A stretch of DNA of 11,936 nucleotides from Planctomycetota bacterium (GCA_023417165.1 JAEZGD010000584.1:1-11936), one strand, 5' to 3'; shown: positions 1,033 to 5,654, counted from the stretch's first letter. Program-made: numbers and translations. Notes: generated by a model from the sequence alone, not told the origin.

Positions 1033-1070
1033 GCCGCGCAGGCTACTAGCGTGCTCAAGAAAAGAACACA

Positions 1071-1093
1071 GGACGGGCGCGCGGTGCCCGTCC
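1071..1093 (-). terminator. Rho-independent terminator for the His-rich gene, on the minus strand.
   Basis: GGACGGGC(gc)-GCG-(gu)GCCCGTCC hairpin with an 8-10 bp GC-rich stem, 24 nt downstream of the TAA at 1117..1119. On the minus strand it is followed immediately by UGUGUUCUUUUCUU (reverse complement of 1051..1070). Confidence 0.65.
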
Positions 1094-1116
1094 TGCGTCG
1101 ATCACTGGCACTGACG

Positions 1117-1368
1117 TTACCAGTTGCATCCGTAACCGCCGTAGCCGTAGTACGGATTGTAATACGGCTGGATGACAATCGGCTTGTGGTGATGGTGGTG
1201 GAAGTGACCGTGTTTGTGATGGTGGTGTTTGTGGTGATGATGATGGCCATGGTGATGGTGCTTGTGATGATGACCACCACCGTGAGCGCTCGCCACACTG
1301 ACGCCGCCCAACACCAAGATCGCCGCGACCACTGCCAAAGCCAAAACTCGGGATACCAAACGTTTCAT
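1117..1368 (-). CDS. Secreted or periplasmic histidine-rich small protein (83 aa): Sec signal peptide, 34-aa poly-His/Lys/Gly tract, Tyr/Gly-rich C-terminus ending GCNW. Putative metal-binding protein.
   Basis: ATG at 1368 is preceded by GAGGAGG with a 7-nt spacer. An alternative in-frame ATG lies at 1386. The N-terminus MKRLVSRVLALAVVAAILVLGGVSVASA-HGGG has a typical n-h-c region with an AxA cleavage site. The mature part is HGGGHHHKHHHHGHHHHHKHHHHKHGHFHHHHHKPIVIQPYYNPYYGYGGYGCNW (29 His). It lies on the same strand, 127 nt downstream of the MNIO-partner gene. Confidence 0.7.
   Translation of the reverse strand: MKRLVSRVLALAVVAAILVLGGVSVASAHGGGHHHKHHHHGHHHHHKHHHHKHGHFHHHHHKPIVIQPYYNPYYGYGGYGCNW
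1183..1284 (-). repeat. Imperfect CAC/CAT(/AAA/GGC) trinucleotide microsatellite encoding the His tract. Slippage-prone.
   Basis: The plus strand reads gtggtgatggtggtggaagtgaccgtgtttgtgatggtggtgtttgtggtgatgatgatggccatggtgatggtg. These are GTG/ATG triplet iterations in frame with the His codons. Confidence 0.5.
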
Positions 1369-1495
1369 GGAATGCCTCCTCGGCATGAAGTTACCGCCCT
1401 GGAAATCCGCTCGTCTTAGTGACGAGCTTCTTCCTGTCTAAGCGGCCTCCTGCGAGAAGCGTTACACGACGATCAGCGATTTAATTCGCAGCGTC

Positions 1496-2245
1496 TCATG
1501 CCACCGCGACCAATCCCATCGCCGCCAGATCGCGCACGATGTCGAGCAGATCGTCGTTCGGCGCGGCCTTAGATGTCGCCGCCCAGGACAAGTAGGTCAC
1601 GGGTCCTAGCGCCGCCAACTCGGCCAACAGCGCGCTGCCGCAATCGTCGAGCGCTGCGGTGCTGATCTCGCCTGCGACGGGAAAGAAAACGACGCGAGTT
1701 GTACGATCGACTTGCTCGCCTAACAGTTCGGCGGTGCCAATCGTCGTCCAGACACGAATCGGATTGAGATACAAGATCGCCACCCCGGCAGGCAACTGCT
1801 CGACGAGTGCTTGCGTCACGCTCCAACGCTCATGAAAGCGCATATAGTCGAGCCGATGCTCGCGCGCCAGCGCTTCGACCTGATGCCGGGCGCGCTGGCA
1901 AGCGATGTAGTCGAGCTGCCGCGACGACAAGCGGCGCATTTGCTCGAGCCAGGTCAGCATGCGATCACAATCGCTGACGCCGGTATCGTAGGCTGAGAGT
2001 GTTGTCTCGCGGACATAGGCTTCGACGAGATTGTCAAAGCGCCGGAACGCCGGAGCGAGGAACTCCAAGCCATTCATCAGCTTCTCGAAACGTTTGTCGA
2101 GATTGCCGTCGACAAACATTTTGACTGCCGCCGGCGTCGAATCTGGCGCCAAATCGACGGCAATAGCTTCACTATTTGCATGCGCCAGCGCACGAGTCAT
2201 GCGCAACAGGTGATCGCGATACGTCGACGGGGTTTGCACCACCAT
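1496..2245 (-). CDS. Putative MNIO partner protein (MbnC/DUF2063-like position and size, about 249 aa). The family assignment rests on gene context, not on recognised motifs.
   Basis: It lies immediately downstream of the DUF692 gene on the same strand. ATG at 2245 is preceded by GGGAGG with a 7-nt spacer. The longer ORF-track version starts at a TTG at 2320, 5 nt after the MNIO stop. Known MNIO systems (MbnBC, TglHI, BufBC, ChrHI) pair DUF692 with a 250-280 aa partner encoded directly downstream. Confidence 0.5.
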   Translation of the reverse strand: MVVQTPSTYRDHLLRMTRALAHANSEAIAVDLAPDSTPAAVKMFVDGNLDKRFEKLMNGLEFLAPAFRRFDNLVEAYVRETTLSAYDTGVSDCDRMLTWLEQMRRLSSRQLDYIACQRARHQVEALAREHRLDYMRFHERWSVTQALVEQLPAGVAILYLNPIRVWTTIGTAELLGEQVDRTTRVVFFPVAGEISTAALDDCGSALLAELAALGPVTYLSWAATSKAAPNDDLLDIVRDLAAMGLVAVA

Positions 2246-2325: not shown

Positions 2326-3162
2326 TTACACACGCACCACGGGCCGATACGTTTCCTCGGCGATCGCCCTGGCGAGCCGCGCTTCGGCGCGCCAGCCGCG
2401 CTCATCCGGAAAGTTTTGATCGCGTTCGATAAAGATGGCGTCCACCTTGCCGCGGCCTTGCTGCAAGCCGAAGCGGTACAGTTCCCACACCGCATCGGGA
2501 ATGGGATGCGAGTGACTATCGATATACATGCCAGCCGCTTCGTCGAACACACCGCCCGCCAGGTGCATTTGCACCCGATGCGCCGAAGGCATCACCTCGG
2601 CGATGAACTCGTACGGATCGAACTGAAAGTTTAGCGCGTTGGCATACACGTTGGTCACGTCCAATAGCCAGCCGCAGCCTGTGCGCGTCAGCAATCGCGA
2701 GACAAACTCCGCTTCGCTCATCTCGCCTTGCAGGCGAAACAAGTAAGCAATGGTTTCGATGTAAAACGTCAGCGGCTCGAAGTAGTTCTGAATCTGATTG
2801 ACGTTGCGGCACGTGGCATCTAAGGCCGCTTCGGTCCATGGCGGAGGCGCAAAGTGCCCCATTTCGACGCCATCACGAACGTCGCGCGTGAATCCCAGAT
2901 GATCGCTGATACTCGCCGCGCCGTTTTCGAGCGCGATCTCGCGCAGCGCGCTTAAGTATTCGAGGCCCGGCGCTTCCGGACTGCATGGCGACAGCTTCAG
3001 CGCATGCAGGCTGACATAGGGGAAGTCGGCATCGGCGAGATAGCGTTCGATGCGCAGCGGATCGTCTGCACGCTCGAACGTGATTTCGCAGGCGTCGATC
3101 GCTGGATCGTCCAAGTAGGGCCGATTCTGTTCGCGCAGCGCATAACCGATGTAAGGTAGCAT
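2326..3162 (-). CDS. DUF692 / UPF0276 family multinuclear non-heme iron oxidase (MNIO; MbnB/TglH/BufB-like), 278 aa.
   Basis: The sequence carries the family signature blocks: IGYALR near the N-terminus, SISDHLGF, WLLDVTNVYANALNFQFDPYEFIAEVMPSAHRVQMHLAGG and DSHSHPIPDAVWELY. These correspond to the conserved metal-ligand regions of DUF692 proteins (xylose-isomerase-like TIM barrel). The length is typical. Confidence 0.85.
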   Translation of the reverse strand: MLPYIGYALREQNRPYLDDPAIDACEITFERADDPLRIERYLADADFPYVSLHALKLSPCSPEAPGLEYLSALREIALENGAASISDHLGFTRDVRDGVEMGHFAPPPWTEAALDATCRNVNQIQNYFEPLTFYIETIAYLFRLQGEMSEAEFVSRLLTRTGCGWLLDVTNVYANALNFQFDPYEFIAEVMPSAHRVQMHLAGGVFDEAAGMYIDSHSHPIPDAVWELYRFGLQQGRGKVDAIFIERDQNFPDERGWRAEARLARAIAEETYRPVVRV

Positions 3163-3241
3163 GGCATCTCAAGGCAAGAGGGAAGGGCAAGTCCCAAGTG
3201 CTCGTTCCCTCGCAGCACTTGGACTTGTTCATGCGGCCGAC

Positions 3242-3370
3242 TTACCAGCACCGACAACAGCGACAGCAACGGCAACAACGGCCGCCGCGCCGCTCTTGCA
3301 CGCCTTGGCGCTGGGTTGTCTTGAGGTTGACAAGTTCCCGCACCGCCTTGGTTTTGGGCTTGGTCTTCAT
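3242..3370 (-). CDS. Candidate RiPP precursor peptide (42 aa), MKTKPKTKAVRELVNLKTTQRQGVQERRGGRCCRCCRCCRCW. Lys-rich leader plus poly-Cys/Arg core. Absent from the ORF track because it is below the 60-aa cut-off.
   Basis: Hand translation of the minus strand gives ATG at 3370..3368 preceded by GGAGGAG (3376..3382 on plus) with an 8-nt spacer, and a TAA stop at 3244..3242. It is on the same strand, 79 nt upstream of the DUF692 start. Seven Cys fall within the last 11 residues. This is the canonical position for an MNIO substrate gene. Confidence 0.6.
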   Translation of the reverse strand: MKTKPKTKAVRELVNLKTTQRQGVQERRGGRCCRCCRCCRCW

Positions 3371-3610
3371 CGTTCCGTCTCCTCCGTCGTGGAAAAGAAG
3401 CGTTGTCTTGGCCGATCGCCGGCGAGTGCTTTGTCTTGAGCCTCACTTCCGGCGATCGCGGTGACTGCTACCAGGGGCTTATCAAAACGCATCCCGCACC
3501 CAGCACGTGACGCGAGAAAGTAAAAGGACCGCCGAGGGGGAGTGTCGCACGGCCCGCGTGACACCAACACTTCTCCTTAAAGCAGTCGCCGTGCCAAAGC
3601 GATCACTGCG

Positions 3611-3741: not shown

Positions 3742-5654
<1,913 letters not shown>

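Follow-up and report, generated by a model that had tools for sequence, protein, structure and literature searches.

How should a 42-residue open reading frame (ORF) that ends in a run of Arg-Cys-Cys (RCC) units, and lies upstream of a gene for an oxidative enzyme that depends on multinuclear non-heme iron (MNIO, DUF692), be understood? The ORF is found on the minus strand of a contig from a Planctomycetota bacterium (GCA_023417165.1 JAEZGD010000584.1:1-11936), the full 11,936 nucleotides (nt) of which are referred to here as the window. Synteny, purifying selection, translation signals, the leader/core pattern, the existence of tandem precursors and an intact MNIO together lead us to read it as the precursor of a peptide made by ribosomes and modified after translation (RiPP). 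We regard it as very probable that the ORF encodes the precursor of the MNIO, and as likely that it is the precursor of a three-gene RiPP cassette, the other two members of which are the MNIO and a partner protein containing a RiPP recognition element (RRE).

The ORF was recovered as the original prediction had described it, with the same frame, core codons and RCC pattern, and its product divides into a leader and a core, MKTKPKTKAVRELVNLKTTQRQGVQERRGG-RCCRCCRCCRCW. The N-terminus is hydrophilic (MKTKPKTKAVRE...) and has no hydrophobic stretch; the 42-residue peptide has no match in Pfam or NCBIfam. Conservation of the frame and ribosome-binding site in relatives, on which the prediction had been staked, is what we observe: the frame is kept, the start codon is ATG in 22 of 22 aligned precursor genes, and in most of these a GGAG-, AGGA- or GGGAG-like purine motif lies no more than about 15 nt 5' of the ATG. 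Six loci share the same 12-residue core, and all 82 of the nucleotide differences found between them in 15 pairwise comparisons are at third codon positions, which is indirect evidence that the gene is translated and under selection. Over the whole coding sequence the window differs at seven positions, six of them third positions, from its relative L022, with which it shares 89% DNA identity across 4.2 kb. Judged from these substitutions, the precursor gene is real, conserved and under purifying selection at the protein level.

A chance ORF within a 5' untranslated region would also be short and would be missed by several gene callers, as this one is. Such an ORF does not explain the codon pattern of the core (CGNTGYTGY three times followed by CGNTGY, an exact match at 3280..3248 on the minus strand), which did not occur in any of 200 dinucleotide-preserving shuffles even with two mismatches permitted; nor does it explain the synonymous-only divergence of identical cores, or the matches to a profile hidden Markov model at the syntenic position in about 30 loci, with E-values of 1e-12 to 1e-20. 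We give this explanation next to no credence, and on the comparative evidence both the chance-ORF and the pure untranslated-region readings are excluded, as the original prediction of a real small gene had supposed. Its accompanying claim that annotation misses the gene holds in part. Gene callers skipped the ORF in L022, L023, L024, L035, L036 and one further locus, and over-extended it to 149 amino acids (aa) in L039; the omission is not absolute, however, because a profile search returned 74 database entries in which such peptides are already called, each as 'hypothetical'. Three longer ORFs that overlap this region, at 2997..3446 (minus strand, 149 aa), 3161..3439 (plus strand) and 3198..3464 (plus strand), were considered and rejected as genes; they extend over the variable spacer, and it is the precursor frame that carries the signal of selection. 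The first of these, which starts with GTG and runs out of frame over the precursor, the spacer and the start of the MNIO gene, is almost certainly spurious.

To place the ORF in context we compared the locus with its relatives. When genomes were scanned with the MNIO, 21 loci were obtained, every one of them in a metagenome-assembled genome of Planctomycetota. An ORF of 37-45 aa with the same architecture lies 5' of the MNIO gene and on the same strand in 17 of the 20 loci with enough upstream DNA, at a spacing of 80-430 nt, and every extra locus obtained by exact-protein look-ups that has enough upstream DNA also carries a precursor (L022-24, L030-36, L039-40). Of the 21 genome loci, 19 have the partner gene next after the MNIO gene. 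The cassette offers no further candidate substrate that is conserved among the relatives. The gene order on the minus strand is precursor, stem-loop, MNIO and partner, forming a compact cassette in which precursor, MNIO and partner are genetically coupled.

The family peptides, 94 of which are unique, have in common a leader motif of the form KKAVRELKxLRT. This is the most conserved part of the peptide: when the family was aligned, R11 proved to be invariant, with conservation of at least 90% for each of K8, V10, E12 and L16. The VRELVNL segment singled out in the original prediction belongs to this motif. Ninety of the peptides carry VRE[LIV], and in 86 of these the first Cys comes 19-22 residues after the V of VRE. 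The cores are, by comparison, variable, and include (RCC)1-3RC[WFHR], FCHRCHRCH, YCSCCYCW..., YCSCCYCWVPKPQA, CKCCKCCKGCG, HCRCRCGCGR and (LERCGR)x8, with W, F, H or R as the C-terminal residue in nearly all members. The last of these cores belongs to a precursor variant at L018:3618-3824, MATTSKPQMSKSVREIMAFHAADNDG(LERCGR)x8, which has one Cys per 6-residue repeat, with one repeat carrying Ala, and which accompanies an MNIO 63% identical to that of the window. Tandem precursors are also found, with two in L019 (3039-3371 and 3707-3823; cores FCCRCCRCF and RCCRCY) and three in L032 (2858-3641; YCSCCYCWVPKPQA twice and CCCCRVPKPLA). A small gene that adjoins its enzyme and is co-oriented with it, and that encodes a conserved leader and a variable core, is what is expected of a RiPP precursor in general, and the combination of conserved leader, variable core and fixed spacing is, at the level of sequence, the canonical RiPP signature. 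The original prediction had the Cys pairs modified by the MNIO; given the synteny, the conserved leader and the variable core, the adjacent enzyme almost certainly takes the peptide as its substrate.

The stem-loop between the precursor stop and the MNIO start, together with the Cys codons before it, could instead suggest that the ORF is a regulatory leader peptide, in which an attenuator senses Cys-tRNA and controls the MNIO while the peptide itself has no function. Seven Cys codons at the end of the ORF and a strong hairpin within about 15 nt do superficially resemble the attenuators of amino-acid operons. However, it is the non-Cys leader residues that are conserved over the 94 sequences while the nucleotides drift, and the FCHRCHRCH and (LERCGR)x8 cores have Cys codons that are few in number or scattered. 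Between precursor and MNIO gene the distance ranges from 79 to 428 nt, tandem duplicated copies of the precursor exist, and no alternative antiterminator pairing was identified; we therefore consider an attenuator highly improbable. A leaky terminator or stabilizer that raises the ratio of precursor to enzyme transcript is a common arrangement in RiPP clusters. In 15 of 22 loci the hairpin after the precursor ranks in the top 5% when set against background windows of the same locus (about one locus is expected by chance), and in several relatives a T-run follows it. In the window itself the hairpin is moderate (rank 0.19 against the same-locus background), and the 79-nt spacer that contains it is identical to that of L022 at 79 of 79 positions, while the loci overall are 89% identical. 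The stem-loop is likely to be a partial terminator or mRNA stabilizer that sets the ratio of precursor to enzyme.

The enzyme of the cassette matches the Pfam model PF05114 over residues 9-268 with an E-value of 6.3e-51 and a score of 173.6 bits, against a cutoff of 25, and is thus a member of this family. Its nearest solved structures are 3BWW, TglH and MbnB, and its DH, E, DxxN, HxAGG, DxH and ERD motifs align to all three; the aligned residues are H53, D87-H88, E136, D168/N171, H200, D215/H217 and E246-R247-D248. Ten residues checked across 121 family members (D87, H88, E136, D168, N171, H200, D215, H217, E246 and D248) are invariant, and R247 is likewise invariant; H53, in the first motif, was read from the alignment. 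The individual motif residues are putative metal ligands, in keeping with known MNIO structures.

The partner protein has no match in profile searches of Pfam, NCBIfam or the PDB. PF09836 (DUF2063) was found at E<=1 in none of 45 partner homologues, the NCBIfam partner models likewise found none, and a partner-family profile reaches only 342 representatives among 1.84 billion proteins. The identification of its fold comes from structure comparison, using predictions made on database homologues. The predicted fold consists of an N-terminal helical domain and a C-terminal RRE-like beta3/alpha3 domain; it matches the DUF2063/RRE partners NGO1945 and TglI and shows the two-domain DUF2063 and RRE arrangement of PDB 3DEE. 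On these models the partner has an RRE/DUF2063-like fold, though it lies beyond recognition as DUF2063 by sequence.

The nature of the partner bears on a further possibility, that the ORF encodes an unmodified Cys-rich peptide with a metal-binding or redox role, similar to a metallothionein, which shares an operon with an MNIO that acts on another substrate. Even unmodified, seven Cys in a stretch of 12 residues could coordinate Cu(I) or Zn, and some loci do have metal-related genes nearby. A conserved hydrophilic leader of 30 residues at a fixed distance from the core would have no role in such a peptide, though, and the cassette has no other conserved candidate for the substrate of the MNIO. 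The predicted RRE fold of the partner points to peptide binding, and partners of the DUF2063 PME1 type are reported to be encoded nearly always beside MNIOs and to be dedicated to them (PMC13097082). We consider an unmodified metal-binding peptide very unlikely.

We then considered the repeat that encodes the core. Its codons, cgt tgt tgc / cgt tgc tgt / cgc tgt tgt / cgg tgc tgg, were proposed in the original prediction to be prone to slipped-strand expansion and contraction, so that the number of RCC units would vary between strains; in the corresponding rival explanation the locus is a hypervariable contingency switch. Tandem Repeats Finder gives the repeat a score of only 35, with a period of 9, 3.1 copies and 78% matches. 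At a lag of 9, 74% of the nucleotides are identical, with no exact run longer than 5 nt. The repeat is degenerate in DNA because synonymous Arg and Cys codons are mixed, and the periodicity is much cleaner in the protein than in the DNA. Some relatives do have cleaner DNA repeats (L007 has an exact lag-9 run of 21 nt), and the alignment of orthologues for which the prediction called shows that the number of units changes in frame across the family, with 0, 1, 2 and 3 CC pairs in 15, 7, 33 and 37 of 92 scored peptides. None of the 94 family sequences has more than three pairs, which implies constraint and not free expansion. Furthermore, three CC pairs are kept in the four closest relatives, L022 (MNIO 99% identical), P0202 (precursor 98%), L023 (87%) and L024 (85%); the core is identical to that of the window in the first three, and L024 differs in ending RGW in place of RCW. 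Over the same divergence between the window and L022, a His-rich ORF downstream gained three indels and its tract changed in length, but the core did not change. A scan of metagenomes for near-identical strains, using back-translated AVRELVNLKT, gave five unrelated chance matches (L025-L029) and no precursors. The near-perfect DNA repeats, and the copy number differing between close strains, that characterize contingency repeats are not seen in the window and its closest relatives, and we consider such a switch quite unlikely. The expected variation in unit number is thus found between genomes and not among the closest relatives: on the sequences compared, it changes on the scale of species, with no demonstrable switch at the level of strains.

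The GG that precedes the core had been likened to a leader-core junction, and this does not hold up. It is confined to the subclade of the window and a few other members (L020, P0217 and P0233), while most relatives have ERH, DRH, HH or LG at this position. No C39-peptidase transporter was found among the loci, where the sole conserved transporter, an ABC_membrane_3 protein, has neither a peptidase nor an ATPase domain; the cassette thus lacks both the conserved GG/GA junction and the C39-peptidase ABC exporter of the double-glycine leader class. The RGG codons cgc ggc ggc (3281..3289, minus strand) are in the 9-nt register of the RCC units and two mismatches away from CGN TGY TGY; the GG may be a decayed CC pair, that is, a fourth unit in which both Cys have become Gly.

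Table 1. Features of the RCC cassette in the window. Coordinates are window positions.
Feature	Position	Strand	Description
Precursor peptide gene	3242..3370	-	42 aa and stop; ATG...TAA; translation MKTKPKTKAVRELVNLKTTQRQGVQERRGGRCCRCCRCCRCW*
Core RCC-RCC-RCC-RCW	3245..3280	-	aa 31-42; 9-nt periodic CGN-TGY-TGY codons
Candidate leader recognition motif AVRELVNLKT	3317..3346	-	aa 9-18; family consensus KKAVRELKxLRT
Shine-Dalgarno-like GGAGGAG	3379..3385	-	8 nt upstream of precursor ATG; read from sequence
Stem-loop	3188..3227	-	precursor stop to MNIO start; stem of 14+ bp, CAAGUCCAAGUGCU...AGCACUUGGGACUUG; centroid fold
MNIO (DUF692), putative peptide-modifying enzyme	2326..3162	-	278 aa; PF05114
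Partner protein	1496..2245	-	249 aa from MVVQT; upstream TTG at 2320 a possible start
Small His-rich ORF	1368..1117	-	128 nt after partner; MKRLVSRVLALAVVAAILVLGGVSVASA-HGGGHHHKHHHHGHHHHHKHHHHKHGHFHHHHHKPIVIQPYYNPYYGYGGYGCNW; preceded by GAGGAGG

In the window the cassette is flanked by unrelated housekeeping genes, with RecQ upstream and ABM, RtcB, Band7 and MgtC elsewhere. A terminator-like hairpin with a T-run lies at 3492..3517 (minus strand), about 225 nt downstream of the RecQ stop (3742), which suggests that the cassette is its own transcription unit. A scan for sigma-70 promoters found nothing 5' of the precursor ORF. Two other elements are conserved in the upstream region: an inverted repeat, GCGATCGCCGG ... 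CCGGCGATCGG (3459..3449 and 3422..3412, minus strand), within the roughly 120 nt 5' of the ATG and shared with L022, and a block, GCGTTTTGATA, conserved in the window, L022, L023 and L024. These could represent an operator, a promoter or a structure in the 5' untranslated region.

Downstream of the partner, a transmembrane-only ABC_membrane_3 protein (PF13748) of about 300 aa is encoded after a gap of about 100-300 nt in 12 of the 21 loci from the genome scan (for example L004:5746-6669 and L008:4484-5383, within loci L003-L019), and three of four extra contexts have it as well. This protein has no adjacent ATPase gene and no NCBIfam match, and it may carry the product out of or into the cell. 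In the window, the partner is followed by the small His-rich ORF of Table 1, which has a Sec-signal-like N-terminus, a long His/Lys tract, a Tyr/Gly tail and no Pfam match; it may encode a secreted metal-binding protein. It was rejected as a feature of the family, since it occurs only in the window and L022 among the 21 genome loci and L022-L024. The 122-aa V/M-rich ORF at 1051..1419 (plus strand) is antisense to the His-rich gene and almost certainly spurious. Some relatives have metal-related neighbors. A Csp copper-storage gene (PF03860) with a signal peptide lies two genes 5' of a cassette of the FCHRCHRCH type in L030 (169-588) and L031 (844-1263), this type of precursor being found on 19 contigs; L032 has an RND-MFP gene, L033 carries an OEP gene and encodes a membrane protein whose tail is His-rich, and DUF4198 and HemP genes occur in L023. 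These neighbors are suggestive of a metal role, but they are sporadic, and most loci lack them.

We propose that the N-terminal 30 residues of the peptide act as a leader, and that the KKAVRELKxLRT-type motif within them would be bound by the RRE domain of the partner. Binding of the leader would bring the core RCCRCCRCCRCW, which starts downstream at a fixed distance of about 20 residues, into the MNIO active site, where core Cys would be oxidized with O2 and an iron cofactor. The systems with which this proposal is best compared are those in which an MNIO, a DUF2063-RRE partner and a Cys-rich peptide give 5-thiooxazole copper-binding peptides (PMC11626156; PMC13097082). By analogy with BufB, HvfB and FonB, the nearest characterized MNIOs, the likeliest reaction would be a 4-electron conversion of Cys to 5-thiooxazole-type heterocycles, and the ERCGR core of L018, an analogue of the captophorin repeat EGKCG in which Arg replaces Lys, supports this comparison. 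The product would be an Arg-rich, thiolate-rich peptide able to chelate soft metals such as Cu(I), akin to the captophorin metallophores, and might be exported by the ABC_membrane_3 protein in the roughly half of relatives that encode it. The stem-loop would keep precursor mRNA in excess over enzyme mRNA. We infer the leader-RRE binding, the choice of Cys, the thiooxazole chemistry, the metal binding and the export from such comparisons with related systems; thiooxazole formation on the core Cys seems to us to fall somewhat short of an even chance, and a role of the product with copper or another metal is a more tentative proposal still.

Several observations weigh against this reading and have to be set beside it. 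The MNIO reaches no curated equivalog cutoff in NCBIfam, where the closest models are BufB (142.3 bits against 310) and HvfB (124.6 against 360), and it could catalyze a different chemistry. A Gln that is invariant in the 121 family members follows the putative catalytic Asp, and this position is Phe or Asp in the Lys-Cys and Cys-Lys captophorin MNIOs (PMC13097082); the departure from the known specificity classes could mean that the chemistry is not identical, and calls for caution. Adjacent Cys-Cys has no characterized MNIO precedent in the searchable literature, and FonB favors a small residue after the modified Cys (PMC13097082). The 42-aa precursor lacks the Sec signal peptide that is typical of bufferins and oxazolins. 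The window has no adjacent transporter, including no ABC_membrane_3 gene, and no systematic association with metal genes was found, four extra well-annotated contexts having housekeeping neighbors only.

To these points are added two loci, L001 and L010, in which an MNIO is present without an intact precursor. L001 holds an orphan MNIO (L001:4000-4773) that is 81% identical at the amino acid level to that of the window; the DNA homology starts exactly at the MNIO start and ends within the gene, and neither precursor nor partner is found within 4 kb on either side. In L010, the MNIO, partner and ABC_membrane_3 genes are intact, with no leader-bearing ORF upstream. The opposite strand of L010 at 3745-3790 carries a Cys-rich stretch, CRRLCCVCCRCECAW, with no start codon and no leader, and this may be an inverted or decayed precursor.

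A precursor with these properties could also belong to a RiPP class of its own, in which vicinal Cys-Cys pairs are converted to an unprecedented product, a true leader is used, the partner has diverged beyond DUF2063, and the role of the Arg-rich, polythiolate product extends beyond the buffering of periplasmic copper. Examples would be directly linked bis(5-thiooxazole) units or some other rearrangement specific to Cys-Cys, and cytoplasmic metal handling or an exported bioactive peptide. We hold this to be possible, though doubtful.

With the MNIO-precursor reading in place, the cassette is of interest for several reasons. Few sources of new peptide chemistry are studied as actively as the MNIOs, and large-scale MNIO mining has leaned on recognizable DUF2063 partners and annotated precursors; the RCC cassette escapes both, because the partner matches no known sequence family and gene callers often pass over the precursor. 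It is a concrete case of how the omission of small ORFs hides RiPP clusters. The cassette offers an unexamined type of substrate, adjacent Cys pairs separated by Arg behind a defined leader motif, and its natural variants, with 0-3 Cys pairs, CHR repeats or ERCGR repeats, already amount to a structure-activity series. It also extends candidate MNIO-made, Cys-derived peptides to the Planctomycetota.

Consideration of the known MNIO systems gives insight into where the cassette belongs. The captophorins (the BufABC bufferins, HvfABC oxazolin and FonABC fontiphorin) share with it the layout of an MNIO, a DUF2063/RRE partner (PME1) and a Cys-rich precursor (PMC11626156, PMC13097082). In contrast to these systems, the partner of the RCC cassette is not recognized as DUF2063 in sequence searches (0 of 45 members), and the MNIO scores under the equivalog cutoffs and has its invariant Gln where theirs have Phe or Asp. 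The RCC precursor has a strongly conserved hydrophilic leader motif in place of a Sec signal peptide, and at its extreme C-terminus lies a core in which a 3-residue unit, Arg-Cys-Cys, with adjacent Cys, is repeated. It falls outside the three precursor categories of DUF2282, Lys-Cys 5-mers and Cys-Lys (PMC13097082), and the cassette is restricted to Planctomycetota, whereas the captophorins are from Pseudomonadota.

The methanobactin system (MbnA/MbnB/MbnC) is similar in having a short leader-core precursor without a signal peptide, and an MNIO and partner that modify Cys beside particular residues to give a copper chelator; the MbnB equivalog and MbnC partner that define it were not found here. 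In the TglHI/pearlin system, which makes 3-thiaglutamate, the substrate of TglH is a C-terminal Cys that a PEARL enzyme has added, whereas the RCC family ends in W, F, H or R, and a PEARL or LanB-like gene is neither present among the window ORFs nor conserved in the relatives. Chryseobasin (ChrA/ChrH) offers a likeness in that the targets of its MNIO are two Cys close together in a C-terminal core (CPACGMG). The window MNIO scores 39 bits against a ChrH cutoff of 600, however, and the type of partner differs too. All MNIOs of the ChrH family carry an extra C-terminal helical bundle (PMC13056109), and the 278-aa MNIO of the window, matched over residues 9-268 by a Pfam model of 263 positions, leaves no room for it.

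We found no description of the RCC-peptide family in the searchable, non-subscription literature; large MNIO similarity networks may include these enzymes without remarking on them. Taken together, these comparisons place the RCC cassette, as read from its sequences, among the systems that combine an MNIO, a partner and a Cys-rich RiPP precursor, as an apparently undescribed member with a new class of precursor and a new sequence family of partner.
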